64,000 nt of DNA. Source: Gammaproteobacteria bacterium (GTDB taxonomy: Bacteria; Pseudomonadota; Gammaproteobacteria; CBDBNL01; JAAOII01). Every line of letters starts with the position of its first letter. Position 1 is the first letter of the stretch. The position numbers and the translations under genes were made by a program. The stretch lies in assembly GCA_965209035.1 (NCBI GenBank), contig OZ242372.1:116497-180496 (forward strand), written 5' to 3'. The notes beneath the pieces were generated by a model that saw only the letters and a list, made by a program, of their open reading frames with translations, was not told the origin of the DNA and did not search any database. Below, piece by piece: positions 13,858-54,225 of this stretch.

Positions 13858-16206
13858 TCAAAGATAATGCCGTAAAAGTTCCCGATAGGCATCTTGCATA
13901 TCCGGATATTTTTTCATCAGGGTTTCTTTTAATTCCAAGGATTCGGCACGCGTATCCCCGATGGCTAAAAATTCCGGCGGGTAAGTCAAAAAGACATCGT
14001 GCCATTTGCCACCAAACCCCACCATGGCCGGGCGGTGATCCGGATAGGTTTGACGATAACCGCGCCAGGTCTTATAGGCCTGTTCGTTGAGATCCGAAAA
14101 ATGCTCCTTAATGCGGGAATGTCGCCCTTCCGTGTAAAGAAGATTGGTGATGTACATTTGATTGACAAGGGCCGGATCCAAGCGCGCGATGTCGTCAATC
14201 TCTTGGGTGATCAAACTGATGTAGCCACTTTCCTTGCGTCCCATCCGCGCTATCTGAACGCACAGGGTGCGGATGGTTTCTTTGTCGGCGCGAATAAACT
14301 CGTGTAACTCGTCTATGACGATAAAAGTGGGGGTGCGCCGAAAAAGTGCTTTTTGACCGTAACGCAAACTTAAAAAAGTCAGGTAGGTGATGAGGAGTTG
14401 CGGCTCGTCCTTCAGTTTTTTAAAGTCCGCGCCAAACAACGGCACATTGAGGCTCATATTATCTTCTTCCTTAAAGCGTTCGCCTATGATCGTATCCAAA
14501 AAACTGCCGACATTCAAAATCAAATTGTCGCGCGCGTATTTTTGTTTTTCGTTTAGGCTTTTTTCCTCCAATTCCCCGAGTCCCATATGAAAATGCGCCA
14601 AAGTCGGCGCCTTATGCACCGAGTGTTTCTTTACAAACTGTTCGTTATAGATATTCCGAATCGCCATTTCGCATACCGCCACCTCATGCACGCTCATTTC
14701 CGGTTTGCCGTCTGTGAGAATGCGGACCAGAGAGCGCACCGTCGGCGACACCAATGCCGAAGACATCTTTGCGCCGACATCGGCACACAACGGAAACGGG
14801 TTAATGACGCTCGTATCCGGATCTATGGCAACATAGTCGCCGCCCAACATCTTAAAAAGAAACTCATAGGTATTGCCGATTTCAATCGTATAAAAGTCAT
14901 AGCCGAGACCGAACAATTGCAGTATTCTGGCACAATTCATCACTCCCTTGCCGCTGCCGGTTTTGGCGATGGTCAGCGAATGATAAAATTCGCCGCCGCT
15001 TTTATTGGTGTAATCAAAACCGACAAATGTGAAGTTGGTGCTGACAAATGCTTCCTGATGTCCGGTTCCCTGTCCGAAACACACCGCGGGCAGGAGGCTC
15101 ATGATCATTTCGGTATGATCTTGACGCATGAACTTGCCGGCATACATATTGGTCGGTAACGAATAAATGATGGCATGCTCCGTCAAATACTCGGACTCCA
15201 AGACAGCCCCAAGCACCGCAAGTTGCTCGGACAAAGATGCCGCTTGTTCTTCTATTTCTTCCTCTGATCCGTAAAGTTTGCAGTAAAACGCATTGGTAAA
15301 GATTTGCAAGCCGTTTTCCACCACATAACGCCGCCAGGCGGAGATGTCTTCCAAACGCTTCTCGGCTTCCACATCCGCCTGCGCGATCTGTCGTTCTTGA
15401 CGAATTTCCTCGCCGCCGCTTTTACGCAGAAAATGCGCATGATCACAACGCCTCAGATAAAACGCAATATCCAACTCCACAGGCAAACACGCCACCAGAT
15501 CGGTTAAGAGACGCACATTGGGTTCGGGATAAAAATACATCAAAAAAGGTTTAATCATCACCGAGTTCATACGGTAAAGCCCCCCTCTTTTTTCCCCGGT
15601 CGGTGTCAGAATGTCTCGTAACATATAACCCGATTCCGGTAATTTTTTACAGGGGTGGTAATGCGAAGATTCGTATAAGAAGCGTATTCCTTCTTCGGTA
15701 CTCAGAAATCGCAGATCGCGAAAACCGCGCAATCCTTTTTGGCAATATTCTTCAAGTTTTGTGCAATTTTGTATTGCCTCTTCCAAAATCCGTTCGGGAC
15801 CATCGGCAACGAACAAATTTAACAGATTGCGGGCAAGTGTCCCAGGTCTGTGCCACTGAATCACAACAAATATCCGATTAAGGTAAAAATAGTCGGCAAG
15901 ATGTTTCATATAGGTCTTCCTTAAAGAACTCAAAACAACGGATTCTCTTTTCAGTGGCTGATTGCCAAACATTGCCGCATTCCGTTTGTCCCGTCTGCGT
16001 CTGATATGAAACTCCAACGAAACTTCAAAGGGGGCGGTATCAATGAGAGCGCGCAAGCCATTCAAGTAAGTGCCGGCCGTCTCTTCGGATGCCATGTAGA
16101 TATCGTAGCCTTCTATTTCGGCGATTACGCTTAGGGTCCCGTCCGTGTGAAGAAAGTAACGCTCGCCCAGGGGGCGCCAACCTTTCAGTGCATGTTCAAG
16201 TCGCAA
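13858..16206 (-). CDS. virB4: T4SS ATPase VirB4/TrbE
   Basis: 782 aa with Walker A (AKTGSGKGV) and Walker B (TFIVIDELHEF). The size and the position after VirB2/VirB3-like genes fit VirB4. Confidence 0.8.
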   Translation of the reverse strand: MRLEHALKGWRPLGERYFLHTDGTLSVIAEIEGYDIYMASEETAGTYLNGLRALIDTAPFEVSLEFHIRRRRDKRNAAMFGNQPLKRESVVLSSLRKTYMKHLADYFYLNRIFVVIQWHRPGTLARNLLNLFVADGPERILEEAIQNCTKLEEYCQKGLRGFRDLRFLSTEEGIRFLYESSHYHPCKKLPESGYMLRDILTPTGEKRGGLYRMNSVMIKPFLMYFYPEPNVRLLTDLVACLPVELDIAFYLRRCDHAHFLRKSGGEEIRQERQIAQADVEAEKRLEDISAWRRYVVENGLQIFTNAFYCKLYGSEEEIEEQAASLSEQLAVLGAVLESEYLTEHAIIYSLPTNMYAGKFMRQDHTEMIMSLLPAVCFGQGTGHQEAFVSTNFTFVGFDYTNKSGGEFYHSLTIAKTGSGKGVMNCARILQLFGLGYDFYTIEIGNTYEFLFKMLGGDYVAIDPDTSVINPFPLCADVGAKMSSALVSPTVRSLVRILTDGKPEMSVHEVAVCEMAIRNIYNEQFVKKHSVHKAPTLAHFHMGLGELEEKSLNEKQKYARDNLILNVGSFLDTIIGERFKEEDNMSLNVPLFGADFKKLKDEPQLLITYLTFLSLRYGQKALFRRTPTFIVIDELHEFIRADKETIRTLCVQIARMGRKESGYISLITQEIDDIARLDPALVNQMYITNLLYTEGRHSRIKEHFSDLNEQAYKTWRGYRQTYPDHRPAMVGFGGKWHDVFLTYPPEFLAIGDTRAESLELKETLMKKYPDMQDAYRELLRHYL

Positions 16207-17011: not shown

Positions 17012-17710
17012 TTATAACAGGCCCTCTTCACTGAACGACAAGGTTTTGCTGCCGCCAATGATGAAGTGATCCAACAACCGTATATCCACCAATTCACAAG
17101 CATCTTTTACCCGCCTTGTGATGCGTTTGTCCGCCTCGCTTGGTTCCGTGAAGCCGGAAGGATGATTATGGGCGATGACAATGGCAGCCGCATTAACCTT
17201 AAGGGCATAACGAATAATCTCGCGCGGATAGACACGCGCGGAATCAATAGTCCCTTGGAACATCTCACGGAACTCCAATATGCGATGCTTGTTATCCATG
17301 AAAATGCAAGCAAAAACCTCATTGCCTCTGCTGCCAAGGACATGCGACAAGTATTCGCGCATGCGTTTAACGGAGGTAATGGGGTCGGTTTCGCGGCGTA
17401 AAATGTCTTCCAAGTAGCGGCGCGCCAATTCTATGATGGCGCGAAACTGCACATACTTGGCTTCGCCCAGCCCTTTTTCTTGACAAAACTCTTTCTTGCT
17501 GCTTTCCAACAACCATTTGAGTCCGCGCTTGTCTATGAGTTCTTCCGCCAATGCCATCACGCCCTTGCCGGTATAGCCGACACGCAGAAAGATTGCGAGA
17601 AGTTCTTTGTCGCTCAGATGACGGGCACCATACCGCAAGAGTTTTTCTCGCGGTCTGTCTTCGCCGGGGCGCCAATGGTTATTCTGAGGTGCTCTGCCGT
17701 CGGTGGACAT
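17012..17710 (-). CDS. radC: RadC-family JAB/MPN-domain protein
   Basis: RPREKLLRYGARHLSDKELLAIFLRVG...; JAMM motif IAHNHPSGFTEPSEAD. Confidence 0.9.
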   Translation of the reverse strand: MSTDGRAPQNNHWRPGEDRPREKLLRYGARHLSDKELLAIFLRVGYTGKGVMALAEELIDKRGLKWLLESSKKEFCQEKGLGEAKYVQFRAIIELARRYLEDILRRETDPITSVKRMREYLSHVLGSRGNEVFACIFMDNKHRILEFREMFQGTIDSARVYPREIIRYALKVNAAAIVIAHNHPSGFTEPSEADKRITRRVKDACELVDIRLLDHFIIGGSKTLSFSEEGLL

Positions 17711-19037
17711 CCGGACGTGCCTGCTCTATGAGTTTTCCGGCATAGTCTGGGACGTCGTTTTTTAGCCTCTCGCCGCCTATCATTCTGCCTCTTTTAATTT
17801 TTCTTTCCATAGTGGATGGTATTTTGTTGAAAGCATTTTATTTTTTTAATGAAACTCCTTGTCAATTGTTTTAGTTTTTGTAACCGCCGTAACCGTATAG
17901 CACGCATCCGCATGCACCGCAATCCGCGGGTGATGCGTAATACAAATAACTTGCGTGTTGCCGCCCAAGAGCGCAAGAGTTTTTCTCGCGGTTGCCTTCG
18001 CCGGGGCGCCAATGGTTATTCTGAGGTGCTCTGCCGTCAGTGGACATCCGGACGTGCCTGCTCTATGAGTTTGCCGGCATAGTCCGGGACGTCGTTTTTT
18101 AGCCTCTCGCCGCCTATCATTCTGCCTCTTTTAATTTTTCTTTCCATAGTTGATGGTATTTTGTTGAAAGTATTTTAATGGAACTCCTTGTCAATTGTTT
18201 TAGTTTTTGTAACCGCCGTAACCGTATAGCACGCATCCGCATGCACCGCAATCCGCGGGTGATGCGTAATACAAATAACTTGCGTGTTGCCGCCCAAGAG
18301 CGCAAGAGTTTTTCTCGCGGTTGCCTTCGCCGGGGCGCCAAGGGTTATTTTGAGATACTCCTCTGCCGTCAGTGGACATCCGGACGTGCCTGCTCTGTGA
18401 GTTTGCCGGCATAGTCCGGCACGTCGTTTTTTAGCCTCTCGCCGCCTATCATTCTGCCTCTTTTAATTTTTCTTTCCATAGTTGATGGTATTTTGTTGAA
18501 AGCATTTTAATGGAACTCCTTGTCAATTGTTTTAGTTTTTGTAACCGCCGTAACCGTATAGCGCGCATCCGCAGGTGCCATAATCCGCGGGTGATGCGTA
18601 ATACAAATGACTTGCGTGTTGCCGCCCAAGAGCGCAAGAGTTTTTCTCGCGGTTGCCTTCGCCGGGGCGCCAAGGGTTATTTTGAGATACTCCTCTGCCG
18701 TCAGTGGACATCCGGACGTGCCTGCTCTATGAGTTTGCCGGCATAGTCCGGCACGTCGTTTTTTAGCCTCTCGCCGCCTATCATTCTGCCTCTTTTAATT
18801 TTTCTTTCCATAGTTGATGGTATTTTGTTGAAAGCATTTTAATGGAACTCCTTGTCAATTGTTTTAGTTTTTGTAACCGCCGTAACCGTATAGCGCGCAT
18901 CCGCAGGTGCCATAATCCGCGGGTGATGCGTAATACAAATAACTTGCGTGTTGCCGCCCAAGAGCGCAAGAGTTTTTCTCGCGGTTGCCTTCGCCGGGGC
19001 GCCAAGGGTTATTTTGAGATACTCCTCTGCCGTCAGT
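17705..19037. repeat. Tandem array of 4 units (337, 332, 332, 332 bp), each made of a radC 5' fragment plus a degenerate recN 3' end
   Basis: The anchor GGACATCCGGACGTGCC recurs at 17705, 18042, 18374, 18706 and 19038. The units carry frameshifted recN C-terminal coding sequence and the ATGTCCACTGA recN-stop/radC-start overlap. Confidence 0.9.
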
Positions 19038-20697
19038 GGACATCCGGACGTGCCTGCTCTATGAGTTTGCCGGCATAGTCAAGCACGTCGTTTTTTAGCC
19101 TCTCGCCGCCTATCATTCTGCCAATTTCAGTTTTTCTTTCCATAGTTGAAAGTATTTTAATGGAACTCGTTGTTAAATTTTCTTTTTTGGTTTTTGTAAC
19201 CGCATAGTGCGCATCCGCATGCACCGCAATCTGCGGATGATGCGTAATACAAATGACTTGCGTGTTGCCGCCCAAGAGTGCCAGCATCTTGCCAACAACC
19301 GATGCCACACCGCTGCTGATTCCGCTGTCCACCTCGTCAAACACCAGGCACGGAATGGCGGAGTTGCGCGCCGCCACCAGGTTCACCGCCAATGCAATGC
19401 GGGACAATTCGCCGCCGGAAGCAATGCGTCGCATCGGCAACAGCAGGGATTCCGGCCCTGTGGCAAGCATAAATTCTATCACGCCGTCCCCGTTTTCGGT
19501 CAGTCTTTCCAGCCGTGAGAATTGAGTGGCAAACTTACATTCCATGTCCAGTTCGCGCAGTTTGGCTGCCACTTCTTGGTCAAAGCGGGCCGCCGCCAAT
19601 CTGCGTTTCTCGGTCAGGCTGTGCGCCAGTTCGCGGCATTTCTCCTCCGTTTCTTTTTCCATACGCGTCAAGTTGCCTATCTTTTCTTCATTGCTGTCCA
19701 GTTCTTCCAATTCTTTCTGTTTGCTTAATTTAAGAGATTCCAAGTTACCCGGCTCCGTCCGATGTTTGCGCGCCAACCGGTGAATTGCACTCATCTTGGC
19801 GTCCAGGCCCGCAAAATCAAGTGTCTCGCTGTTGGCTTTGTCCGCGTAAGATTGTAATTCCGCACGCAAGTTTTCCAACAGTTTGCGGCCACTTTCCGGT
19901 TGGCTCGCCAGTTCACTTAAAAATTTGTCGTTTGCCTGTTGCAATTTACTTTGTAATTCGTTAAGTTGTTGGGTTAAACCGGAACTGTCTTGGTTGTCCA
20001 GTATTTGCATACAGTCTTCCAGGGACTGGTTGAGAATCTCGCTATTATTGCTCAAGCGATGCTGTTCTTCCAGTTCCGTATAGTCCTTTTGCGACAAAGC
20101 GATTTCTTCCAACTCCGCCAGTTCGTGTCTGAGGAGGCTGAGCATGCGCTCGTCCGTTTGGCCTGTTTGCCGTCTTGTCGTGAGTTCGCGCCGCAATTCC
20201 AGCAGTTTTTCATACACGGCGCGGTATGCCGCAGATTCTTTGCCGGTTCCGCCGAAATCGTCAATGAACCGGATGTGCGTGTGCCGTTGCATCAGAAGTT
20301 GGTGGGCATGCTGTCCTTGCAAACTAATCAGTAAGCTTGCCACTTCTTTCATATCTTGCAAGGTAGCGGGCACTCCGTTAATAAAAGACTTTGAACCGCT
20401 GCCGCTTAAACTTCTGCGCAAAATGCATTCGTTATCCTGAAACAGGTCGCGTTTTTCCAGCCAAGCGCGAACTTGAGGTAACTTTTCCGTTTCAAAAATG
20501 GCGCTAATTTCGGCGCGAACTTTTTGGTTGCGGATCAGAGAGGGGCTGCCGCGTTCGCCGAGTGTCAAACCAAGTGCGTTCAAAATGATAGACTTGCCGG
20601 CACCCGTTTCGCCCGTAATCACATTCATTGCGGGATGAAACTCCAGTTCCAGTTTGTCAACCAGAACAAAATTACCGACCGAGAGTTGGGTTAGCAT
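19033..20697 (-). CDS. recN: DNA repair protein RecN
   Basis: 554 aa. N-terminal MLTQLSVGNFVLVDKLELEF...ITGETGAGKS, a long coiled-coil middle region, and C-terminal SGGELSRIALA...LVFDEVDSGI. Confidence 0.92.
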   Translation of the reverse strand: MLTQLSVGNFVLVDKLELEFHPAMNVITGETGAGKSIILNALGLTLGERGSPSLIRNQKVRAEISAIFETEKLPQVRAWLEKRDLFQDNECILRRSLSGSGSKSFINGVPATLQDMKEVASLLISLQGQHAHQLLMQRHTHIRFIDDFGGTGKESAAYRAVYEKLLELRRELTTRRQTGQTDERMLSLLRHELAELEEIALSQKDYTELEEQHRLSNNSEILNQSLEDCMQILDNQDSSGLTQQLNELQSKLQQANDKFLSELASQPESGRKLLENLRAELQSYADKANSETLDFAGLDAKMSAIHRLARKHRTEPGNLESLKLSKQKELEELDSNEEKIGNLTRMEKETEEKCRELAHSLTEKRRLAAARFDQEVAAKLRELDMECKFATQFSRLERLTENGDGVIEFMLATGPESLLLPMRRIASGGELSRIALAVNLVAARNSAIPCLVFDEVDSGISSGVASVVGKMLALLGGNTQVICITHHPQIAVHADAHYAVTKTKKENLTTSSIKILSTMERKTEIGRMIGGERLKNDVLDYAGKLIEQARPDVH

Positions 20698-21796
20698 TTT
20701 TGTGTTTCAGATACTCGTCTTTACTAAGGTTTCTGTGCTCCGCTTTGTTGATCTGCCCGAGTCGTTTGAACCAATCGGAGCAATTTTCTTCCGCCAAACT
20801 TGCCATCATCGCAATATGATTGGGAGTGTCGTTTAAGCAAGGAATGTAATCATAGTGTTGGCCGCCGGCTTTTATAAAGACTTCCCGATTTTCCCGGTCT
20901 ATTTCTTCAATCGTTTCCAAACAATCCGAGGAGAAGCCCGGACAAATCACCCGCAGATCTTTGATCCCTTTGGCCGGCAAGGCGGCAAGAGTTTCATCCG
21001 TGTAAGGTTGCAACCAGGGTTGTTTGCCAAAACGGGACTGAAAAGTAACCCTATAATCGCTTTCTCGCAGTTTGAGTTCTGCGGCAACCAGACGGGCGGT
21101 TTTGTGGCAGTGGCAATGATAAGGATCTCCCTGCCCGAGCGAAGCCAGAGGGATACCGTGAAACGAAAACAACAGAAGAGAGTTCTTATCTTTTGGACGG
21201 CGAGATGCCCGCACGGAATCCGCCAGAACCTTAATGAATTCCGGGTGGTCGTGATAAGAATGGATGAATCTTGTATCGGGTATCCATCGCCATCGCCGCA
21301 GTTCCTCTGTCACAGACTCAAACACAGAACCCACCGTGGCGGAAGCATATTGCGGGTAAAGAGGAAAGATCAGCAAGCGGGTAACGCCTTCTTCTTTCAA
21401 TTTAAGTAACGCCTGCGAAATAGCCGGCTTGCCGTAACTCATCCCAAGACCGACGGTGACAAACGGATAATCTTTGATGAGGGTTTGATGCAGTTTATTT
21501 TGCTGGGAGTAACTGAATAACAACAAAGGAGCGCCCTCCTTGCGCCATATTTTGCGATAGTTTGCCGCCGCAACATGCGAACGGCGCGGCAAGATAATTA
21601 AGTTTAAGAGTAGCCATTTCGGCAGTTTGGACATCTCTATGACCCGTCTGTCGCCGAGAAACTGTCGCAAGTAGCGTTTGAGTGCCCCGGGTGCCGGGCT
21701 GTCCGGGCTACCCAAAGCAACCAACAAGATACCCAGTTTTTCGGGCTGTCCGTGACGATAGTGATCCGTACGAACAAGACCTCCGGTCTCACTCAC
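20672..21796 (-). CDS. hemH: Ferrochelatase
   Basis: GILLVALGSPDSP...LRQFLGDRRVI...PLYPQYASATVGS...SFHGIP motifs. I prefer the GTG at 21796, one nt after the folK stop. The track ORF extends to 21865 and would overlap folK by 68 nt. Confidence 0.85.
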   Translation of the reverse strand: MSETGGLVRTDHYRHGQPEKLGILLVALGSPDSPAPGALKRYLRQFLGDRRVIEMSKLPKWLLLNLIILPRRSHVAAANYRKIWRKEGAPLLLFSYSQQNKLHQTLIKDYPFVTVGLGMSYGKPAISQALLKLKEEGVTRLLIFPLYPQYASATVGSVFESVTEELRRWRWIPDTRFIHSYHDHPEFIKVLADSVRASRRPKDKNSLLLFSFHGIPLASLGQGDPYHCHCHKTARLVAAELKLRESDYRVTFQSRFGKQPWLQPYTDETLAALPAKGIKDLRVICPGFSSDCLETIEEIDRENREVFIKAGGQHYDYIPCLNDTPNHIAMMASLAEENCSDWFKRLGQINKAEHRNLSKDEYLKHKNANPTLGR

Positions 21797-21797
21797 C

Positions 21798-22289
21798 TTA
21801 TTCCTCTTTTTCCTCCGTTTCGGAAAAGATGAAAAGATTCCGCAGTTCGGGCAGCAACTCAACAATCATGTATTTCAAGAAGGGGCGCATATAAACATCC
21901 TTATCCACCACAGCACCGTTCCATATCAATATATCCATATCTATGCAACGCGGCGCGTCCGAGGAGTTCGGCTCTCTGCCCAGTTGTCGTTCAATGTCTT
22001 TGAGTTGCGTGCGTAATTCCGGCCAAGAACAGGATGTTTCCAGCAGGCAAGCACAATTTACAAAGTCCGGCTGCGAATCGGGAACATCCATCGCCGGCGT
22101 TGTGTGGGATTTTGACCATTTGACAATCGAGTAGTTTGCTTCAAGCAGTTCCTTAACCTTGCCAATATGATGCTCCGGTCGGATGTTGGAGCCAATACCG
22201 ACCAGGACCCGATTGGGCCTCTTTTCTTTTGTTGTTTTAGTTTCTTTATTTGTTTGTTCCATTTTTTCAGTTTTTATTTTTCCAGACAT
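21798..22289 (-). CDS. folK: 2-amino-4-hydroxy-6-hydroxymethyldihydropteridine diphosphokinase
   Basis: VLVGIGSNI...TPAMD...QPDFVNCACLLETS...LKDIERQLGR...RCIDMDILIW. Confidence 0.85.
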   Translation of the reverse strand: MSGKIKTEKMEQTNKETKTTKEKRPNRVLVGIGSNIRPEHHIGKVKELLEANYSIVKWSKSHTTPAMDVPDSQPDFVNCACLLETSCSWPELRTQLKDIERQLGREPNSSDAPRCIDMDILIWNGAVVDKDVYMRPFLKYMIVELLPELRNLFIFSETEEKEE

Positions 22290-22660
22290 AATTCTATCGC
22301 CACCGTATCACTAAAACGCAAGGCACCGGGTTTCTCGGCACGCACCCTAACCCGCATCGCCTTGTCTTCACCGAGAACAATATCCGCAATTCCCATTGCC
22401 ATTTTTTCCAACAACCCAAAACGCCCTTGTTCCACATGCGCGATGATCCTCTTGTTAAGAATTTTGTAATTCAATGTATCTTCAATCCGATCGGTTTCGC
22501 AAGCACGCAAAGTTTCCGCGGCGCAGTCGATCCGGACAGTGATGTTCACATCCTGTTTGTTTTTCTGTTCCCAGTCATAAATGCCCACATAGGTGCGGAG
22601 ACGCAGATTCTTGATCTCAATTTGCATTGTTGGCGTTGTTGGCACCGTTTGCTTTTTCAT
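22274..22660 (-). CDS. folB: Dihydroneopterin aldolase
   Basis: IEIKNLRLRTYVGIYDWEQKNKQDVNITVRID...YKILNKRII; located upstream of folK. Confidence 0.8.
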   Translation of the reverse strand: MKKQTVPTTPTMQIEIKNLRLRTYVGIYDWEQKNKQDVNITVRIDCAAETLRACETDRIEDTLNYKILNKRIIAHVEQGRFGLLEKMAMGIADIVLGEDKAMRVRVRAEKPGALRFSDTVAIELCLEK

Positions 22661-22713: not shown

Positions 22714-22903
22714 TTATAAGAACTTTATTCTATCCCTTTGCAAAATTGTATGATCCCACCCAGTTCCGGACTTTTGTTGTTTTTGCAAGAACCGGATTGG
22801 GCCGGATTGGGATAGTTGTTTGAGAGCATAATGAGGACGTTCGCGATGATACCAAGCCAACCATTCGATGAGTTTGGCGTTGTGTCAATGCCGACGTGCA
22901 AAT
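22714..22903. repeat. Left copy of the 190-bp direct target duplication flanking the IS1634-like element
   Basis: By eye it is identical to 24890-25079. It contains the IS481-like end module at 22747-22882. Confidence 0.9.
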
Positions 22904-24889
22904 CTTGACTTCGGAAAGAAATTATTATATTTTTAAAAAACCTTGTATTTTCAAGGTTTTTTTAGGATCTTTAATAGTGTATAATTAAAAGCATAATATG
23001 TATATTCGCGAATTCACTCGAAAAAACGGGCAGGTTCTGTCCGTGGTTTTTTCTTTTTATCGGTCCAAGCACAAGCAGCCGAACAATATGACTCTGTATA
23101 CCAGCCAACCGGTGGAAGCCGACAGTGCGGAATATGCGGTGGTGCGGGCCGAGATGGAGCAACGCTGCCGCCGCTTGGAGAAGGAATTAAGACAAAGCAC
23201 CTCACTGAATGCGTTTTTAACAAAACATCAAAAGGTGGTGGGCTGTGGTCGTGGCCATGCTATCCGGCGCAACGACCGGGTGGATGACGATGGACCGGGG
23301 GCACTTTCGGCCTTAAGAACTTTAGGTGCGCGCAGTTACGGTCTGCCCTATGTCATGGAGAAATTATTTGCGTCCATGGGCTTGGATACGTTGGTGGCAC
23401 CGCGGCGCCAACGGCTGAATGCCTGTTTGCGGGTGCTCAGTTGGGGGCGGCTGACGGCCGAGCGGATTAGTAAACGGCAATTGTCGCAGCTGTTGGAAGA
23501 AGAATATGGGATCCACTGGTCTGAGGACAGCATGTACAAAGCGATGGATCATTTGGATGATGCCGAGATTGAGCGCATTCAGATGCGGGTGGCACGTTCC
23601 AATTTGGCATTACTTAACCAAAAGACGGTGCAGCTGTTGCTGTATGACACGACGACCTTTTATTTTGAATCGGTGCAGGCGGATGACTTCCGCTGCAGAG
23701 GTTGGTCCAAAGACGGCAAAGCCCATCGGACGCAGGTGGTCTTTGGGATGTGGATGACGCCTTGTGGCTTGCCGTTGGGCTACAAACTATTTACCGGTAA
23801 GACCGCGGATGTGTCGACCTTGTTGCCGGCTTTGGACGAGATGCAGCGGCGGCTGGGGGCCCAAAAGACGGTGGTGATTGCTGACAACGGCCTCCTCAGT
23901 GAAGACAACTTGGCGGCGATTACGGCGGCCGGGCATGCGTTTGTCATGGCCTGTTCGCCACGCAAGTTACCCAAAGAGATCCGCACGGCGGTCTACAACT
24001 ATGATTTTGAAGGCGGGGCCCGCATCTTTGAGATCGGCTTGCTACCACCCGCGCGCACCCAACTTGCCGACAACGACCGCCCTCTGGTGGCACGCAATTA
24101 TTATGCCAACTTCTCCTCCAAGCGCGCCCGCCGCGATCTCCATCAGCTGCATCTGGCCTTGAAGCGGGCCAAAAACAGTACCGGCCGCAACCACCAAGCT
24201 CTGCGGGGGATTGCCTGTCCCGATATCCGTAAGTTCTTATCCAACAACGGCATCACCACACTGAACCCCACAGCCATCAACCGGGCGATGCAAGAAATCG
24301 GTCTCTATGGCGTGCAGGCCTCGCCCAATATTGACTACCAAACCGCCTACACTTACTACAAACAACTGTATGCCATTGAACACGGCTTCCGGGATCTTAA
24401 AAGTGATCTGCAAATCCGCCCGACCTTCCATTGGAAACCCGAGCGCATCCGCGCCCATTTCGCCCTCTGCTATCTGGCGTTTGCCGCCATCCGCCGCTTG
24501 CGGTATGTCCTCCGCCAACAAAAGCCCGCACCCACCACCGTGTGGACCACCGAAATGCTGCCGTTCACCGATCTAGATGCCCGACCGCAGCCGCCGCAAA
24601 AAAACAAGACCGAGGAAATCGTCACCACCAAGAAGATCCTCAAAGAACTGCGCAACTTCAAAGCAACTATCCAACGCAATCCCGTTGGCAACTATTACAG
24701 CAGCCCACACCAACTCACCCCGGGACAGCAACGCATTTTACAAGCCGTTCAACTAAAACCCAAACAACCTGCTCTGTTGGATCACAAACACTAAGCGCAA
24801 GAAGCAAAGTCGCAAGGGCTCATAGTGTATAAAAACGGCCCGCAAACCCTTATAAAAACAGGGTTTTTTAAGAAGTTTCCGAAGTCAAG
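22904..24889 (+). mobile_element. IS1634-family (IS4-related) insertion sequence, 1986 bp
   Basis: 14-bp perfect terminal inverted repeats: CTTGACTTCGGAAA at 22904-22917 and TTTCCGAAGTCAAG at 24876-24889. Single 598-aa DDE transposase ORF. Subterminal hairpins with T-runs lie at about 22936-22965 and 24853-24870. The element is flanked by a 190-bp direct repeat. Confidence 0.85.
22998..24794 (+). CDS. IS1634-family DDE transposase
   Basis: 598 aa. The N-terminal MYIREFTRKNGQ... is typical of this family. DDE candidates are LLLYDTTTFYFE, VVIADNGLLS and YAIEHGFRDLK (E-x6-K). Confidence 0.8.
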   Translation: MYIREFTRKNGQVLSVVFSFYRSKHKQPNNMTLYTSQPVEADSAEYAVVRAEMEQRCRRLEKELRQSTSLNAFLTKHQKVVGCGRGHAIRRNDRVDDDGPGALSALRTLGARSYGLPYVMEKLFASMGLDTLVAPRRQRLNACLRVLSWGRLTAERISKRQLSQLLEEEYGIHWSEDSMYKAMDHLDDAEIERIQMRVARSNLALLNQKTVQLLLYDTTTFYFESVQADDFRCRGWSKDGKAHRTQVVFGMWMTPCGLPLGYKLFTGKTADVSTLLPALDEMQRRLGAQKTVVIADNGLLSEDNLAAITAAGHAFVMACSPRKLPKEIRTAVYNYDFEGGARIFEIGLLPPARTQLADNDRPLVARNYYANFSSKRARRDLHQLHLALKRAKNSTGRNHQALRGIACPDIRKFLSNNGITTLNPTAINRAMQEIGLYGVQASPNIDYQTAYTYYKQLYAIEHGFRDLKSDLQIRPTFHWKPERIRAHFALCYLAFAAIRRLRYVLRQQKPAPTTVWTTEMLPFTDLDARPQPPQKNKTEEIVTTKKILKELRNFKATIQRNPVGNYYSSPHQLTPGQQRILQAVQLKPKQPALLDHKH

Positions 24890-25079
24890 TTATAAGAACT
24901 TTATTCTATCCCTTTGCAAAATTGTATGATCCCACCCAGTTCCGGACTTTTGTTGTTTTTGCAAGAACCGGATTGGGCCGGATTGGGATAGTTGTTTGAG
25001 AGCATAATGAGGACGTTCGCGATGATACCAAGCCAACCATTCGATGAGTTTGGCGTTGTGTCAATGCCGACGTGCAAAT
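24890..25079. repeat. Right copy of the 190-bp direct target duplication
   Basis: By eye it is identical to 22714-22903. Confidence 0.9.
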
Positions 25080-26453
25080 AAATGCGCCTATTCAGATGCT
25101 TACCCGATCAATAAGATCTATTTTAGGATTTATATTGACAGGATGATTGCATGATCTCATAAAGGTTCTGGACTCTGAGTTTGGTATTGTGCGTCCTCAG
25201 ATCAAGCAGCCGGATGTTCTGTCGGACGGGTCGAAAATAGATCCGGCAACGGGTCTCCGGTATGTGGAGCTAGATGAATGAAACGGGCAAGAAAGATGGA
25301 TAGCTGTTTTGCTCTCACCGCCGCAGACAGCGGAGGCTTGTTGTTGATAAAACTGTCTAGGTGTATCCGCTGGCAAGACGGTACGGTGTGCGAGAGCGGC
25401 TGCACCGCGGAGGTGATTTGAAATGAGAGGAACACGTTTACACTACATTGGTTATCGCGTGCGCGGTTTCAATAAAATGGTGGTTTTAGCAAACAAATAT
25501 TCAAACATGTCTAAAACCACCAAAATCAAACTGGACACCTTAGCGTTCGCGCGCAAACATGGTGTCGCGGCCGCGTTGGATCATGCCAGGATCAGTCGTG
25601 CTACATTCTACGAGTGGCAGCGGCGTTTCCGTGAAGGCGGGGTCGATGAACTGGCGAACAACTATGGGTATCAGCCCAAGCGGTCCAACACCTGGCCACC
25701 GGCACTGATTACCAAGATCCGATCTTGGCGACAAGAGCGTCCGAACATCGGTGCCGGTAAACTGGTCTGCTTGTTACCCGAATGGTGTCAGCAGCGCGGG
25801 CTGCCGCTGCCCAGCCAATCAACGCTCTCTCGCATCATTGCCGATGACCCGGATAAGATGCGGTGCAAACCATCGCGGTCCGTGCCGAAACGCCTGCGGC
25901 AAGGTGCTCCGCGCGAGCGCAAGGACATCCGCTTTGTTGCGGGCCGGAGAGGTGAATGTGTTGCCTTTGATACGCTCGTCCGCATCGTCGATGGCCGGCG
26001 CTTTTATTGGCATGTCGGCATTGATCTATTTTCCCGCTTCTCACTGGTCAGTGTCGACACCTCGGCTGCTTCGGCCAGTTCCGCCCAGCTCTTTACCGCC
26101 ATGCAAAACATACTCGGCACTCGGATCGAAAAAGTCCTCACCGATAATGGCAGTGAGTTCGCCAAAGACTTTCACCGGGTCGTGACCGCAAACGGCAGCA
26201 CCCACTGGTATACCTATCCAAGGAAACCGCAAATGAATGCACACTGCGAACGGTTTAATCGCACTCTCTGGGAAGAGTTCGGTTGTCATATGCGGCATCT
26301 CTTGGTTAAGGATATGCCAGCATTCAACGCCAAACTCATCGAGTGGTTGGCTTGGTATAATCTGGAACGTCCCCATTATGCTCTCAAACAACTCTCGCCA
26401 ATCCAGTTTTTGCAAAAACAAAAAAAGTCCAGAAATGGGTGGGATCATACAAT
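24921..26453 (+). mobile_element. IS481-family element with ~135-bp imperfect terminal inverted copies
   Basis: The left end ATTGTATGATCCCACCCAGTTCCGG... (24921-25058) is the reverse complement, with scattered mismatches and a 12-bp duplication, of the right end ...CCAGAAATGGGTGGGATCATACAAT (about 26320-26453). The right end contains the 3' end of the transposase gene. Confidence 0.6.
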
Positions 26454-26487
26454 GATTAACAAAAGATTCTCAATTCCCGTAAGATAG
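25423..26487 (+). CDS. IS481-family transposase (HTH plus rve integrase core)
   Basis: ISRATFYEWQRRFREGGVDEL (HTH); DTLVRIVDGRRFYWHVGIDLFSR...LTDNGSEF...PRKPQMNAHCERFNRTLWEEF (DDE/rve). More likely starts are the ATGs at 25477 or 25507 (MSKTTKIKLD...). The last ~11 codons read past the element end. Confidence 0.8.
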   Translation: MRGTRLHYIGYRVRGFNKMVVLANKYSNMSKTTKIKLDTLAFARKHGVAAALDHARISRATFYEWQRRFREGGVDELANNYGYQPKRSNTWPPALITKIRSWRQERPNIGAGKLVCLLPEWCQQRGLPLPSQSTLSRIIADDPDKMRCKPSRSVPKRLRQGAPRERKDIRFVAGRRGECVAFDTLVRIVDGRRFYWHVGIDLFSRFSLVSVDTSAASASSAQLFTAMQNILGTRIEKVLTDNGSEFAKDFHRVVTANGSTHWYTYPRKPQMNAHCERFNRTLWEEFGCHMRHLLVKDMPAFNAKLIEWLAWYNLERPHYALKQLSPIQFLQKQKKSRNGWDHTMINKRFSIPVR

Positions 26488-41418: not shown

Positions 41419-42216
41419 TTACTTACGTTTGGGTTTGGGTTCGTATTTGTCTATATCATTAATATCCCAATGATTCTCCTTGAAAAACTGATTACGCAGA
41501 TACAGACCGGCCAACAGATGCACCGACTGCACAGTGCCCACCGCTTTGATTATTCCCTTCGTCTCTTCGGTTGCCGATATATTCCTTTCAACAAAAGCGT
41601 AGATCACTTCCGCAACTTGATAAAGATCGCCTTGCTCTTCTTGTTCCGAGTTAAGTTTTTTTAGATCCTTATTCCATTCTTCCCGATGCTCGTCCACATA
41701 TTCCATCAGCCCGCTACTTTCCAGTATCGCTTCACCGATGTCGGTCATATTGAGAGGAGATGCTTTTTGAGAATATAAAGCGCGTTCTTCTTCAACCGAA
41801 TCTCTCTTTGCCATGTTTCCCAAAACAGTAAGAATTTTTACGGTATCACGATGCATATCTTCTCTTAACTCTCTTTTATCTTCTCTTAACTCTCTTTTAA
41901 CTTCTTTTATTTCTGTTTTAACTTCCTTTATTTCTGTTTTGACTTCTTTGATTTCTGTTTGGACTTCTTGTTGACTCACTTCCAACCGCTTGATACCCTT
42001 ATATATTGAAATGAACGCATATTCGCCAATGAAACCAATCACAAGTGATAACAAAAATATCAAAAGTATCACAAACCAATTGTTTGCCGAAACTTGCCCG
42101 TATGTAATCGCCGTGTCGTAAACAGTCATCGTGGATAAAACGGAAAATACAATAAGCCCCAAGGCCGCCGTGAATTTCGCACGACCGCTTAATTTAAGAT
42201 CTGTGCGTTTATTCAT
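41419..42216 (-). CDS. 2-TM / heptad-repeat / C-terminal-domain protein, array copy 1
   Basis: The track ORF is 267 aa from the TTG at 42222. The ATG at 42216 has GGAGGAG 9 nt upstream. Heptads (EIKEVKT)x3 plus (RELREDK)x2. The tail is ..KPKRK. Confidence 0.75.
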   Translation of the reverse strand: MNKRTDLKLSGRAKFTAALGLIVFSVLSTMTVYDTAITYGQVSANNWFVILLIFLLSLVIGFIGEYAFISIYKGIKRLEVSQQEVQTEIKEVKTEIKEVKTEIKEVKRELREDKRELREDMHRDTVKILTVLGNMAKRDSVEEERALYSQKASPLNMTDIGEAILESSGLMEYVDEHREEWNKDLKKLNSEQEEQGDLYQVAEVIYAFVERNISATEETKGIIKAVGTVQSVHLLAGLYLRNQFFKENHWDINDIDKYEPKPKRK

Positions 42217-42414
42217 CGGCAATCACTCCTCCTCAAATTCATAAAATAGTGTCCTCTATCCTCCCGCATTTGTTATGATGTTCCCCTTTTTAATGAACTG
42301 CCTTGCCATAACAATATTTACCGCAAAATCTTTTAGAAATTTTATCATTATATAATTCCAAACTCAGCGTCCGGAACCTTTCTGAGATTATGCATCTTAT
42401 TTTCTTTTCTTTCT

Positions 42415-43263
42415 TTAATGTTGATTGCGTTTGGATTTGCGTTCAGGTTTGGGTTCGTATTTGTCTATATCATTAATATCCCAATGATTCTCCTTGAAAA
42501 ACTGATTACGCAGGTACAGACCGGCCAACAGATGCACCGACGGCACAGTGCCCACCGCTTTGATTATTCCCTTCGTCTCTTCGGTTGCCGATATATTCCT
42601 TTCAACAAAAGCGTAGATCACTTCCGCAACTTGATAAAGATCGCCTTGCTCTTCTTGTTCCGGGTTGAGTTTTTTTAGATCCTTATTCCATTCTTCCCGA
42701 TGCTCGTCCACATATTCCATCAGCCCGCTACTTTCCAGTATCGCTTCACCGATGTCGGTCATATTGAGAGGAGATGCTTTTTGAGAATATAAAGCGCGTT
42801 CTTCTTCAACCGAATCTCTCTTTGCCATGTTTCCCAAAACAGTAAGAATTTTTACGGTATCACGATGCATATCTTCTCTTAAATCTGTTTTAACTTCTTT
42901 TATCTCCCCTCTTAACTCTGTTTTAACTTCTTTTATTTCTGTTCTAACTTGTTTCATTTCTGTTTGGACTTCTTTTATTTTTGTTTGGACTTCTTTTATT
43001 TCTGCTTGGACTTCTTGTTGGCTCACTTCCAACCGCTTGATACCCTTATATATTGAAATGAACGCATATTCGCCAATTAAACCAATCACAAGTGATAACA
43101 AAAATATCAAAAGTATCACAAACCAATTGTTTGCCGAAACTTGCCCGTATGTAATCGCCGTGTCGTAAACAGTCATCGTGGATAAAACGGAAAATACAAT
43201 AAGCCCCAAGGCCGCCGTGAATTTCGCACGACCGCTTAATTTGAGATCTGTGCGTTTATTCAT
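42415..43263 (-). CDS. 2-TM / heptad-repeat / C-terminal-domain protein, array copy 2
   Basis: The track ORF is 284 aa, with the same RBS/ATG layout. Heptad block EIKEVQTKIKEVQTEMKQVRTEIKEVKTELRGEIKEVKTDLRED. Confidence 0.75.
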   Translation of the reverse strand: MNKRTDLKLSGRAKFTAALGLIVFSVLSTMTVYDTAITYGQVSANNWFVILLIFLLSLVIGLIGEYAFISIYKGIKRLEVSQQEVQAEIKEVQTKIKEVQTEMKQVRTEIKEVKTELRGEIKEVKTDLREDMHRDTVKILTVLGNMAKRDSVEEERALYSQKASPLNMTDIGEAILESSGLMEYVDEHREEWNKDLKKLNPEQEEQGDLYQVAEVIYAFVERNISATEETKGIIKAVGTVPSVHLLAGLYLRNQFFKENHWDINDIDKYEPKPERKSKRNQH

Positions 43264-43462
43264 CGGCAATCACTCCTCCTCAAATTCATAAAATAGTGTC
43301 CTCTATCCTCCCGCATTTGTTATGATGTTCCCCTTTTTAATAAACTGCCTTGCCATAACAATATTTGACCACAAAATCTTTTAGAAATTTTATCATTATA
43401 TCATTCCAAACTCAGCGTCCGGAACCTTTCTGAGATTATGCATCTTATTTTCTTTTCTTTCT

Positions 43463-44332
43463 TTAATGTTGATTGCGTTTGGATTTGCGTTCAGGTTTGG
43501 GTTCGTATTTGTCTATATCATTAATATCCCAATGATTCTCCTTGAAAAACTGATTACGCAGGTACAGACCGGCCAACAGATGCACCGACTGCACAGTGCC
43601 CACCGCTTTGATTATTTTCTGCGTCTCTTCGGTTGCCGATATATTCTTTTCAACAAAAGCGTAGATCGCTTCCGCTATTTGATAAAGATCGCCTTGCTCT
43701 TCTTGTTCCGGGTTGAGTTTGCTTAGTTCCCTATTCCATTCTTCCCGATGTTCGTCCACATATTCCATCAGCCCGCTACTTTCCAGTATCGCTTCACCGA
43801 TGTCGGTCATATTGAGAGGAGATGCTTTTTGAGAATATAAAGCGCGTTCTTCTTCAACCGAATCTCTCTTTGCCATGTTTCCCAAAACAGTAAGAATTTT
43901 TACGGTATCACGATGCATATCTTCTCTTAAATCTGTTTTAACTTCTTTTATCTCCCCTCTTAACTCTGTTTTAACTTCTTTTATTTCTGTTCTAACTTCT
44001 TTTATTTCTGTTCTAACTTGTTTCATTTCTGTTTGGACTTCTTTTATTTTTGTTTGGACTTCTTTGATTTCTGTTTGGACTTCTTGTTGGCTCACTTCCA
44101 ACCGCTTGATACCCTTATATATTGAAATGAACGCATATTCGCCAATGAAACCAATCACAAGTGATAACAAAAATATCAAAAGTATCACAAACCAATTGTT
44201 TGCCGAAACTTGCCCGTATGTAATCGCCGTGTCGTAAACAGTCATCGTGGATAAAACGGAAAATACAATAAGTCCCAAGGCCGCCGTGAATTTTGCACGA
44301 CCGCTTAATTTGAGATCTGTGCGTTTATTCAT
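43463..44332 (-). CDS. 2-TM / heptad-repeat / C-terminal-domain protein, array copy 3
   Basis: The track ORF is 291 aa, one heptad more than copy 2. It carries distinct substitutions in the C-terminal domain (NRELSKLN, YQIAEAIYAFVEK, TQKIIK). Confidence 0.75.
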   Translation of the reverse strand: MNKRTDLKLSGRAKFTAALGLIVFSVLSTMTVYDTAITYGQVSANNWFVILLIFLLSLVIGFIGEYAFISIYKGIKRLEVSQQEVQTEIKEVQTKIKEVQTEMKQVRTEIKEVRTEIKEVKTELRGEIKEVKTDLREDMHRDTVKILTVLGNMAKRDSVEEERALYSQKASPLNMTDIGEAILESSGLMEYVDEHREEWNRELSKLNPEQEEQGDLYQIAEAIYAFVEKNISATEETQKIIKAVGTVQSVHLLAGLYLRNQFFKENHWDINDIDKYEPKPERKSKRNQH

Positions 44333-44530
44333 CGGCAATCACTCCTCCTCAAATTCATAAAATAGTGTCCTCTATCCTCCCGCATTTGTTATGATGTTCC
44401 CCTTTTTAATAAACTGCATTGCCATAACAATATTTACCGCAAAATCTTTTAGAAATTTTATCATTATATAATTCCAAACTCAGCGTCCGGAACCTTTCTG
44501 AGATTATGCATCTTATTTTCTTTTCTTTCT

Positions 44531-45421
44531 TTAATGTTGATTGCGTTTGGATTTGCGTTCAGGTTTGGGTTCGTATTTGTCTATATCATTAATATCCCAA
44601 TGATTCTCCTTGAAAAACTGATTACGCAGGTACAGACCGGCCAACAGATGCACCGACTGCACAGTGCCCACCGCTTTGATTATTCCCTTCGTCTCTTCGG
44701 TTGCCGATATATTCCTTTCAACAAAAGCGTAGATCACTTCCGCAACTTGATAAAGATCGCCTTGCTCTTCTTGTTCCGAGTTAAGTTTTTTTAGATCCTT
44801 ATTCCATTCTTCCCGATGCTCGTCCACATATTCCATCAGCCCGCTACTTTCCAGTATCGCTTCACCGATGTCGGTCATGTTGAGAGGAGATGCTTTTTGA
44901 GAATATAAAGCGCGTTCTTCTTCAACCGAATCTCTCTTTGCCATGTTTCCCAAAACAGTAAGAATTTTTACGGTATCACGATGCATATCTTCTCTTAAAT
45001 CTGTTTTAACTTCTTTTATCTCCCCTCTTAACTCTGTTTTAACTTCTTTTATTTCTGTTCTAACTTCTTTTATTTCTGTTCTAACTTGTTTCATTTCTGT
45101 TTGGACTTCTTTTATTTTTGTTTGGACTTCTTTGATTTCTGTTTGGACTTCTTTGATTTCTGTTTGGACTTCTTGTTGGCTCACTTCCAACCGCTTGATA
45201 CCCTTATATATTGAAATGAACGCATATTCGCCAATGAAACCAATCACAAGTGATAACAAAAATATCAAAAGTATCACAAACCAATTGTTTGCCGAAACTT
45301 GCCCGTATGTAATCGCCGTGTCGTAAACAGTCATCGTGGATAAAACGGAAAATACAATAAGTCCCAAGGCCGCCGTGAATTTTGCACGACCGCTTAATTT
45401 GAGATCTGTGCGTTTATTCAT
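44531..45421 (-). CDS. 2-TM / heptad-repeat / C-terminal-domain protein, array copy 4
   Basis: The track ORF is 298 aa, one heptad more than copy 3. Its 5' flank differs from the other three spacers. Confidence 0.75.
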   Translation of the reverse strand: MNKRTDLKLSGRAKFTAALGLIVFSVLSTMTVYDTAITYGQVSANNWFVILLIFLLSLVIGFIGEYAFISIYKGIKRLEVSQQEVQTEIKEVQTEIKEVQTKIKEVQTEMKQVRTEIKEVRTEIKEVKTELRGEIKEVKTDLREDMHRDTVKILTVLGNMAKRDSVEEERALYSQKASPLNMTDIGEAILESSGLMEYVDEHREEWNKDLKKLNSEQEEQGDLYQVAEVIYAFVERNISATEETKGIIKAVGTVQSVHLLAGLYLRNQFFKENHWDINDIDKYEPKPERKSKRNQH

Positions 45422-45886
45422 CGGCAATCACTCCTTCTCAAATTAATGTTTCTCTTTTTAATAAACTGCATTGCCATAATGATATCTTACCACAAAATCT
45501 TTTAGAAATTTTATCATTATATAATTTCAAACTCAGCGTCCGGAACCTTTCTGAGATCATGCACATCATGTATCGTCTCGCCCGGTTTTGGACTGTTGTA
45601 TGTGTTCTTTCCGTCAATGATCCGGTCGCACATGGTCGCACATGGCCGCACATGGCCGCACATGGCCGCCGTGCGTAACCCGGTCGTTTGCGATTAACAC
45701 GGATGAGCCGGCTGCCGCGTCTGCGATGGGGATCTTGAAGTCGGACGGATATTTCGGTTTTAGAAAAATTGGAAAAAAACAGCGGATAATGACATCAAAG
45801 CGGTCCCCGTTGCCTAAAATAAATGCAAATATGATTAATTTTTATTCGCACAACACTCAATTCAAAATTTAATTCAAACAAACGAT

Positions 45887-53849: not shown

Positions 53850-53953
53850 TTTTTAATATGGTTACGAATTAATTTTTATAAAAATTTTGTAGACTTTCAT
53901 TATAACTTAACTTTCAAAATAATCATCATGCAAATCATTATGCAATGTTGTAA

Positions 53954-54102: not shown

Positions 54103-54225
54103 CTTAATATAAAGATTTTAGTTTTTGCGGCTTCTTATAATATCCTTATGGTTACTATTTTTGCTAACTTGCTTAAAAACTAAAACAATATAATTAATCT
54201 TAAATAATAAATCAATAATAATTCA

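Follow-up and report, generated by a model that had tools for sequence, protein, structure and literature searches.

Within the 64-kb stretch of DNA analysed here (the window; W denotes its strain), which comes from an uncultured gammaproteobacterium, the DNA-repair genes recN and radC are separated by four additional copies of their own junction. This raises the question of how the end of one gene and the beginning of the next came to be repeated together, and whether any of the copies has been put to use. The explanation we consider quite likely is that the junction was duplicated in tandem and later reshaped as its copies crossed over unequally and exchanged sequence, that the copy next to radC was retained as a leader, and that the other units are neutral.

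Anatomy of the recN-radC array

Both flanking genes are intact and lie, as the array does, on the minus strand. The recN ORF (19033..20697, 554 aa) matches Pfam SMC_N (1.4e-21; 77.4 bits against a curated cut-off of 40) and its product is 95% identical to P0001. The radC ORF (17012..17710, 232 aa) matches RadC (JAB; 2.8e-43; 147.1 bits against 22.1) and UPF0758_N (2.8e-24; 85.4 bits against 27.1), and its product is 99% identical to P0121. The operon context is a compact folB-folK-hemH-recN-radC. An exact-match look-up of the RadC protein returned no record, and the sole match in a RecN scan of genome contigs was an uninformative, 27%-identical Erysipelotrichaceae locus.

The whole array, including both genuine end copies, occupies 17634..19278 (minus strand) and was delimited by TRF (period 332, 5.0 copies, 94% matches) and self-BLAST; within the window the unit is found only there. 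This bears out an earlier note on this DNA, which had described a tandem amplification of the recN 3'/radC 5' junction with five copies of the overlap: all five were located, with ATGs at 17710, 18047, 18379, 18711 and 19043. The overlap motif reads ATGTCCACTGA at the last four of these and ATGTCCACCGA at the true radC start (17700-17710), where in both W and its closest relative, L002, the TGA of direct stop/start coupling has been lost (TGA>CGA).

Numbered from the recN side to the radC side, the four inserted units (332, 332, 332 and 337 bp) are arranged head-to-tail, with spacings of 337/332/332/332 in the repeat search. Unit u1 (18712..19043) begins with the ATG lying across the true stop of recN and consists of a radC fragment (18965-19043) and a recN pseudo-tail (18701-18964); u2 (18380..18711) and u3 (18048..18379) follow, and u4 (17711..18047) adjoins radC, all on the minus strand. 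As the earlier note had it, each unit joins radC 5' sequence (76-79 nt) to a decayed recN 3' tail (264-272 nt), the sources being the first 77 nt of radC (17634-17710) and the last 246 nt of recN (19033-19278). When the genuine radC 5' end and recN tail are combined into one reference sequence, the units are 88-90% identical to it, with 28-33 gap columns. The upstream parts of all tails are broken by indels and stops; frameshifts and insertions of 9 and 14 nt are among the changes. The two units nearest recN are almost identical, as had been claimed (u1/u2 99.4%, 2 differences), followed by u1/u3 (97.6%), u3/u4 (97.3%) and u1/u4 (95.4%), a gradient that fits expansion by unequal crossing-over. 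The 5-bp insertion previously assigned to u4 is correct as a net figure, but it is not a single insertion, since it is made up of a gain of 8 nt (TAAAAAAA) and a loss of 3.

At the novel join, the recN tail passes into the radC fragment (CCCAAGAG/CGCAAGAG, 17964..17979 on the plus strand, repeated at 18293-18308, 18625-18640 and 18957-18972). The hexamer CAAGAG, which had been proposed as the crossover point, is indeed present at every join in W. However, it occurs there twice (CTCTTGCG/CTCTTGGG) and no classical single-copy microhomology is seen, so the crossover probably lay beside the microhomology and not inside it. The old W join may also have mutated since it was formed.

The four chimeric ORFs of about 59 aa that had been foreseen were found, at 59, 59, 59 (within a 70-aa ORF) and 58 aa. 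The one in u1 (18864..19043, minus strand) encodes RadC residues 1-17 and is then frameshifted; its equivalents are at 18532-18711, 18200-18379 and 17871-18047. Neither these nor the antisense ORFs of 74-78 aa were accepted as genes, being frameshifted fusions that are not conserved in L002.

Could the array be an artefact of assembly, in which the assembler multiplied one junction or a smaller number of copies? Contigs of the short-read kind do end at its edges and cannot span it: Logan contigs from three runs of the same sample break at 17688 and 19249. Yet the units are distinguished by fixed differences and indels, and in the three runs the unit-specific variants form separate contigs at single-copy depth. 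By k-mer depth, unit-specific pieces lie at about 1x the flank and the piece common to three units at about 3x (38 against 12-14.5 in one run and 60 against 13-26 in another, runs X2 and X3). These depths match the assembled copy numbers, so the array is not an invention of the assembler. The independent assembly of another sample, L002, moreover contains a homologous array that is built differently. We therefore regard an artefact as very improbable; the exact copy number of four is based on the assembly together with k-mer depth. A scar left by a mobile element, either as an att duplication linked to the conjugation-type island that follows radC or as a dispersed REP/MITE-like element, appears still less credible. 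The region downstream of radC does vary, carrying TraG-P-loop genes in W and L002 and restriction-modification genes in the more distant lineage L003/L004/L007, and IS elements lie nearby. Nevertheless, the units consist of radC 5' and recN 3' sequence only, they lie upstream of radC and not around the island, no adjacent integrase is present, and the window holds no further copy of the unit elsewhere. Since nothing foreign lies between the copies, we rejected a mobile-element or att origin.

Relatives and the history of the junction

The earlier note had suggested that relatives might reveal the unamplified, ancestral junction, and the comparison, in which four to five lineages of the clade were sampled, did so. 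In three outgroup lineages the two genes overlap with no spacer, by 11 nt in L009, 14 nt in L010/L011 and 20 nt in L013. The closest relative, L002, is collinear with W on both sides of the array at 94-96% identity and carries two units at the same place, with periods of 234 and 368 and joins that differ from those of W. Its breakpoints connect radC nt 14 with recN and radC nt ~165 with recN, and these joins fit single-copy microhomologies of 6-8 nt (CGGCAA and TTG(G)CGG).

All six pseudo-tails of W and L002 carry an insertion of CGGCGGTTA and a change of ACTGAAATT to ATTAAAAGA, both absent from the two genuine tails. Since these derived changes are common to all W and L002 copies, the first duplication is older than the split between the two strains. 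The tail of u4 (p4), whose sequence at and below 17923 is the orthologue of L002 3701-3895, additionally shares GTCCCAGAC, GGAAAAC and TGA>CGA with the second pseudo-tail of L002 (p2), and a 3-nt insertion and two substitutions are common to the radC fragments of u1-u3 and the 165-nt fragment of L002. Judged by this distribution of characters, the copies are mosaics that have exchanged sequence with one another. Thus the proposal of one illegitimate event followed by amplification agrees with the duplicated junction and with the identity gradient, but not with the two other breakpoints of L002 or with the mosaic copies.

The more distant lineage L003/L004/L007 has a recN-radC spacer of ~210 bp, the last ~140 nt of which correspond to a heavily decayed recN tail. 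In support of this, an in-register alignment of the last 140 nt to recN tails is significant (z 4-8, 0/500 shuffles), and these 140 nt are 50-60% identical to the tails of the clade compared with 38-45% to those of the outgroups. When the L003 spacer was compared with the recN tail of the same genome, strict local alignment gave no significant match, whereas register-anchored and global alignments did. The spacer copy is single in L003, L007 and L008 and tandemly doubled in L004. Scans of metagenome contigs with the 32-mer conserved in the tails and with the block conserved in L003-type spacers gave no matches, and a RecN-tail-derived N-terminal extension was not evident in the longer RadC homologues that we inspected (252-304 aa). 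As the relatives indicate, the duplication is old and is still being remodelled.

We propose the following history. Ancestrally, recN ended within the start of radC (ATGnnnnnTGA). A tandem duplication, illegitimate and independent of RecA, would then have arisen between a point in recN ~250 nt short of its stop and a point within the radC 5' end. Its first product, a full recN with a radC 5' fragment followed by a recN 3' tail copy with a full radC, would have spared both genes and preserved the native sequence ahead of radC. Once present, the repeat could have undergone unequal homologous recombination, gene conversion and additional rearrangements at microhomologies, leading to four units in W and to two, differently joined, in L002. 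Away from radC the copies would have decayed, and the proximal ~90-135 nt would carry the translation-initiation or leader region of radC, once embedded in the coding sequence of recN. These recombination mechanisms, like the leader role, are what we infer; the array's anatomy, its ancestral state, the common ancestry of the copies, the several breakpoints and the low divergence next to radC are shown by the sequences compared.

A similar duplication at carB had been taken as a sign of a recurrent process in this genome. The carB repeat exists, which lends slight support to that idea, but it is of a different kind, namely a local repeat of ~135 bp made of the gene end and intergenic DNA. A fourth copy of the carB repeat lies 2.7 kb away.

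The tract adjoining radC

The pseudo-tail segment next to radC (17711..17802, minus strand) is a candidate radC leader, with a Shine-Dalgarno-like motif (AAGAGG) and a RecN-tail ORF. This ORF (17679..17810, minus strand; 43 aa, MERKIKRGRMIGG..PDVHRRQSTSE*) reads across the radC ATG and ends 32 nt inside radC. The other units contain RecN-tail ORFs of 36 aa (18037-18147, 18369-18479 and 18701-18811), each with a stop that overlaps the next ATG.

Divergence in this tract is low. Between W and L002, it differs at 1 of 92 positions compared with 52 of 550 four-fold sites (p=0.0035; dS 0.12-0.26). Between L003 and L007, the homologous spacer tract differs at 24 of 128 positions (19%) compared with 161 of 307 four-fold sites (52%; p=4e-11), and the 5' part of the same spacer is neutral-like (39/81). 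The description of the RecN tails as decayed therefore applies to their upstream parts but not to the proximal ~92 nt. Since substitutions in the short ORF of L003/L007 fall 5/3/5 by codon position, with no periodicity, the peptide itself is not conserved. From these patterns of substitution, the ~90-135 nt that immediately precede radC seem to be kept by purifying selection, and the radC-proximal remnant has probably been retained as a putative radC leader. The three other units of W are most likely neutral, unstable by-products.

No sigma-70-like promoter was predicted on the sense strand of the W array or of the L003/L007 spacers; p1 of L002 alone has an 11/12 match to one. An Rfam search gave no match, and conserved RNA structure was not supported (covariation term +1.56). 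SOS regulation was considered and rejected, the CTGT-N8-ACAG box being absent throughout the window.

It could be argued that the whole array is neutral junk and that the low divergence beside radC reflects concerted evolution, through gene conversion involving the selected, genuine tail of recN as well as the units themselves, or else the recent import of a short segment by recombination. Such a reading accommodates the broken upstream part of every tail, the mosaic characters that point to exchange among copies, the lack of any detected promoter, Rfam family or conserved structure, and the match in position, in the W/L002 comparison, between the low-divergence tract (17802-17634) and the repeated segment. 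Concerted evolution may contribute partly to the low divergence between these two strains. Nevertheless, p4 of W and p2 of L002 keep at least six positions unlike the genuine tails and the other units, so they have not been overwritten, and yet they differ at only 1 of 92 positions. Because the diagnostic characters of the proximal copy are common to the orthologues only, recent conversion between paralogues does not explain the low divergence. In L003/L007, the tract is 50-55% identical to the genuine tail, which is too diverged for conversion, and yet its divergence is 19%, compared with 52% at four-fold sites. We thus find an entirely neutral array unlikely. A stronger claim, that the duplication itself was selected, is one we put forward tentatively and doubt on balance. 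By separating recN from radC, the duplication would have released the translation-initiation and regulatory region of radC from encoding the RecN C-terminus; the RecN-tail copy, with its Shine-Dalgarno-like motif and short ORF, would have been exapted as a putative leader and kept since before the divergence of W and L003, and copy number might tune or phase-vary radC expression. If so, the locus would represent a natural case of two genes de-overlapped by duplication of their junction. In the reading we prefer, only the proximal remnant is retained, as a candidate radC leader.

Comparison with known systems

Tandem duplication is the commonest structural mutation in bacteria and is usually seen as a transient laboratory event; laboratory duplications are usually lost fast without selection. 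In this locus, one small duplication can be traced over natural lineages, through an overlapping ancestor, a decayed but retained remnant, two remodelled versions and a four-fold amplification. It illustrates that duplication of a gene boundary harms neither gene and, if the putative leader is real, that upstream coding sequence can become the non-coding leader of a downstream gene. The array is also a trap for annotation and assembly, with its five radC-like starts, spurious short ORFs and short-read contig breaks, and a likely site of copy-number heterogeneity.

Among overlapping gene pairs, translational coupling is associated with ATGA or ATGnnnnnTGA overlaps, as in pairs of the trp operon. 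The outgroups and the inferred ancestor resemble these pairs in having the recN stop overlapping the radC start, and the stop of each unit's short RecN-tail ORF overlaps the next ATG, except in u4, where the true start is mutated. In contrast, the direct overlap of recN with radC is broken in W, with TGA changed to CGA at the true radC start. Upstream leader ORFs provide a further parallel, with a short ORF and a Shine-Dalgarno-like motif directly upstream of radC and overlapping its start, in a tract conserved above neutral sites in two lineages. Unlike in those systems, the peptide is not conserved, no attenuator or terminator structure was seen in this putative leader, and it is unusual for such a region to derive from sequence that encoded the C-terminus of the preceding gene.

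The repetition of a gene 3' end beside the intact gene recalls integration at att sites, but here no integrated element lies between the repeats, no integrase is present and the repeat also includes the 5' part of the following gene, a feature explained only by tandem duplication across the junction. Microhomology-mediated tandem duplication has been described as a general mechanism (preprint 10.64898/2026.02.28.708716), and duplication-amplification has been described in E. coli (PMC1428787). As in that process, the W units are head-to-tail, derive from adjacent single-copy sequence and have one novel join each, copy number differs between W and L002, neighbouring units are the most identical, and the L002 joins use microhomologies of 6-8 nt in the classical way. 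The W array departs from it in that its join keeps both copies of the hexamer instead of one, and in that it has persisted to ~10% divergence and is common to two diverged strains. The recN/radC array is thus a fresh example of an already known type of event, a tandem duplication of the ordinary kind.

Anatomy and reality of the recN-radC array

Every gene in this region lies on the minus strand, and folB, folK, hemH, recN and radC make up a compact operon whose gene ends overlap. Between recN (19033-20697, a 554-aa ORF matching Pfam SMC_N) and radC (17012-17710, a 232-aa ORF with the UPF0758_N and RadC JAB domains of Pfam), TRF called a tandem array at 17634-19278 (period 332, 5.0 copies, 94% matches), and a repeat search of the window gave spacings of 337, 332, 332 and 332 between repeat starts. 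The four inserted units, also on the minus strand, are u1 (18712-19043), u2 (18380-18711), u3 (18048-18379) and u4 (17711-18047). Each consists of the radC start with the first 76-79 nt of that gene, followed by a pseudo-tail of 264-272 nt that has homology to the final ~250 nt of recN. A tandem duplication with its endpoints in two adjacent genes A and B necessarily produces this order: full A, 5' part of B joined to 3' part of A, full B. The units are between 95.4% (u1/u4) and 99.4% (u1/u2) identical to each other and 88-90% identical to the genuine sequences, the latter with about 30 gap columns.

The earlier note had described this as a four-fold amplification of the recN-3'/radC-5' junction, an accurate account that needs three refinements. 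The overlap motif, which the note counted five times, reads ATGTCCACTGA at four sites and ATGTCCACCGA at the real radC start. The 5-bp insertion reported in u4 is a net figure, the actual changes being +8 and -3. Finally, a hexamer common to both genes is present at the joins as claimed (CCCAAGAG|CGCAAGAG, plus strand, at 17964-17979, 18293-18308, 18625-18640 and 18957-18972), but it is found twice at every join, so the crossover adjoined the microhomology and was not within it.

The array sequence was recovered as Logan contigs in three sequencing runs of the same sample (X1, X2 and X3), with the long flank contigs ending at 17688 and 19249. Pieces specific to a single copy had flank-like k-mer depth in X2 (13.7 for 19093-19267 and 17.6 for 17996-18058; flanks 12-14.5), and the piece common to u1-u3 (18976-19054) stood at roughly threefold this level (38.4 in X2; 60 in X3, where flanks were 13-26). 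These depths, the fixed-position differences that distinguish the copies, and a related array in an independent assembly from another sample (the closest relative, contig L002) make an assembly artefact very unlikely. X1 also yielded a second variant contig over 19455-19620, with 7 differences in 166 nt and roughly a third of the depth; therefore, a related strain co-occurs in the source sample.

History of the duplication

RecN and RadC searches placed the host in an uncultured gammaproteobacterial lineage in which a single close relative was identified (RecN 95%, RadC 99%), the few others being at 62% and about 50%. The unamplified ancestral junction that the earlier note had presumed was found in the outgroups L009 (RecN 51%), L010/L011 (49%) and L013 (43%), where recN and radC overlap by 11, 14 and 20 nt, respectively, and the spacer is absent. 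In another relative at ~50% (L012, 2501-4246), the recN product has 581 aa, and an unknown 869-aa ORF follows the gene in the place of radC; thus, the recN-radC adjacency is not universal across the wider group.

On either side of the array, L002 and the window align collinearly (95.7% identity across 3.3 kb upstream, 94.1% across 4.7 kb downstream), and the ~590-bp recN-radC interval of L002 contains two units whose breakpoints are unlike those of the window. In one (period 234), the microhomology CGGCAA links radC nt 14 to recN; in the other (period 368), radC nt ~165 is linked to recN at TGCATGCGG by way of TTG(G)CGG. The insertion CGGCGGTTA and the change of ACTGAAATT to ATTAAAAGA are common to the six pseudo-tails of the window and L002 and absent from both genuine recN tails. 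The radC-adjacent pseudo-tails, p4 in the window and p2 in L002, additionally have in common GTCCCAGAC, GGAAAAC and TGA>CGA, and a 3-nt insertion plus two substitutions link the radC fragments of u1-u3 with the 165-nt fragment of L002. These derived changes show that the first duplication took place before the two strains diverged. A 14-nt internal duplication is specific to the window and present in all four of its units. Later remodelling would have involved new microhomology joins, this duplication, unequal crossing-over and conversion, and the array copies are mosaics.

The 62% lineage (L003, L004, L007 and L008) carries a ~210-bp recN-radC spacer. It is single in L003, L007 and L008; in L004 (7684-8088) it is tandemly doubled (~203 bp, 96-98% identity), a repeat not called by TRF. 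Strict local alignment detected no homology between this spacer and the recN tail. With the 140 nt that precede the radC start anchored at the stop/start motif, 51-54 matches per 130 nt were obtained at offset 0, compared to about 33 at other offsets. Global alignment gave z of 4-8, a score reached by 0 of 500 dinucleotide shuffles, and identity to recN tails was 50-60% within the clade versus 38-45% for outgroups. These results show that the 62% lineage, too, has a much older, decayed recN-tail copy before radC, arising either from the same ancient event as that of the window or independently. The observation of the earlier note is confirmed and its interpretation partly supported: the broad mechanism it proposed is correct, the history goes back further and took several steps, and the decay is not universal. 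We are highly confident in this structural and evolutionary account of the array.

Probable constraint on the tract preceding radC

The 92 nt immediately upstream of radC (17711-17802) show a single difference between the window and L002, compared with 52 of 550 four-fold sites (Fisher test, p=0.0035; p=9e-6 versus the radC four-fold sites). Farther upstream, the other half of this tail shows ~25% differences plus indels. The diagnostic characters of the radC-adjacent copy occur elsewhere only in its L002 orthologue, so the similarity is not accounted for by recent conversion, whether the donor is the genuine tail or another unit. Between L003 and L007, 161 of 307 four-fold sites differ, compared to 24 of 128 in the final 135 spacer columns (p=4e-11); the 5' part of the spacer is neutral-like (39/81). 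Gene conversion was rejected in that lineage too, the paralogue being too diverged. The two independent comparisons indicate that ~90-135 nt before radC are probably under purifying selection.

At the array, synonymous divergence shows a stepwise increase (17012-22336 versus L002 1-4594): dS is 0.10-0.14 for folK, hemH and recN and 0.26 for radC, with dN/dS of 0.16-0.27 and 0.02, respectively. This suggests that recombination histories differ on the two sides of the array and that the upstream genes are under rather relaxed constraint.

The last 36 codons of RecN stay open in every unit (MERKIKRGRMIGG...PDVH and stop), the stop overlapping the next ATG, and the RecN-tail ORF adjoining radC is 43 codons long, terminating 32 nt into radC. 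All pseudo-tails carry AAGAGG just upstream of the internal Met, where four clustered substitutions have generated it. In L003-type spacers, AGAGG precedes a 27-codon ORF that matches in length and register and whose TGA overlaps the radC ATG. Evidence for any particular mode of action is negative on several counts. Since substitutions in the L003/L007 short ORF lack codon periodicity in the spacer alignment, the peptide itself is not conserved. Promoter prediction found none in the window units or the L003/L007 spacers, the sole promoter-like match (11/12) being in the first L002 pseudo-tail; the tract matched no Rfam family, and covariation support for an RNA structure was absent. We consider it an even call that the conserved tract is a translation-initiation or leader region of radC. 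Such a leader would formerly have been embedded in the recN coding sequence, and the junction duplication would keep it intact before radC and release it from coupling to RecN translation.

Neighbouring repeats and comparison with known systems

The carB end (carB, 47812-51060, plus strand, identified by Pfam) had been offered as a similar duplication. A ~135-bp unit, which includes the last ~50 nt of carB together with a GC-rich hairpin and a (CCGAACAC)n run, is present in 2.5 copies at 51008-51338, after the gene; 2.7 kb away, at 53905-54103, there is a fourth copy, beyond a 722-aa fn3-domain ORF (51681-53849, minus) that the copies flank. This is a local repeat that includes one gene end; it does not span a two-gene junction, and it bears out no more than the general point that local duplications are numerous in this genome. 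Four tandem paralogues of 267, 284, 291 and 298 aa occupy 41419-45427 (minus; period ~1.05 kb, 93-100% identical) in a stretch of low GC (39%), with 21-nt repeats encoding EIKEVxT heptads in numbers that differ per gene; no Pfam family scored above cut-off, with only weak coiled-coil-type matches. Shorter tandem repeats occur at 58125-58286 (12 nt x 13.5 copies, TTGAACGGAACA) and 62616-62741 (11 nt x 11.5 copies, GGTTTGGTCGG).

Just upstream of folB, exact 190-nt direct repeats (22714-22903 and 24890-25079) flank a 598-aa DDE_Tnp_1 transposase (22998-24794, plus), and a second, rve-type transposase is located at 25423-26487. The L002 contig stops at the corresponding point, inside folK. Downstream of radC the content is lineage-variable, with conjugation-type genes in the window and restriction-modification genes in L003, L004 and L007. 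A conjugation-type ATPase ORF (TraG-P-loop, 13858-16206, minus) is a single 782-aa frame in the window; its counterpart in L002 (5401-7753; 95% nucleotide identity, 4 gap columns) is called as two genes of 508 and 269 aa.

The three extra window units are lineage-specific and 95-99% identical to one another; they are most plausibly neutral by-products prone to recombination. The short chimeric ORFs within them were rejected as genes, being frameshifted fusions not conserved in L002. Illegitimate microhomology-associated joining followed by multi-copy expansion corresponds to microhomology-mediated tandem duplication (preprint 10.64898/2026.02.28.708716), and duplication-amplification has long been studied in E. 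coli (PMC1428787). Less ordinary is the combination of persistence through substantial divergence, at least three restructurings at one junction, and a radC-proximal part apparently under selection in two lineages. The window array is a fresh example of known tandem duplication-amplification, not a new kind of system.
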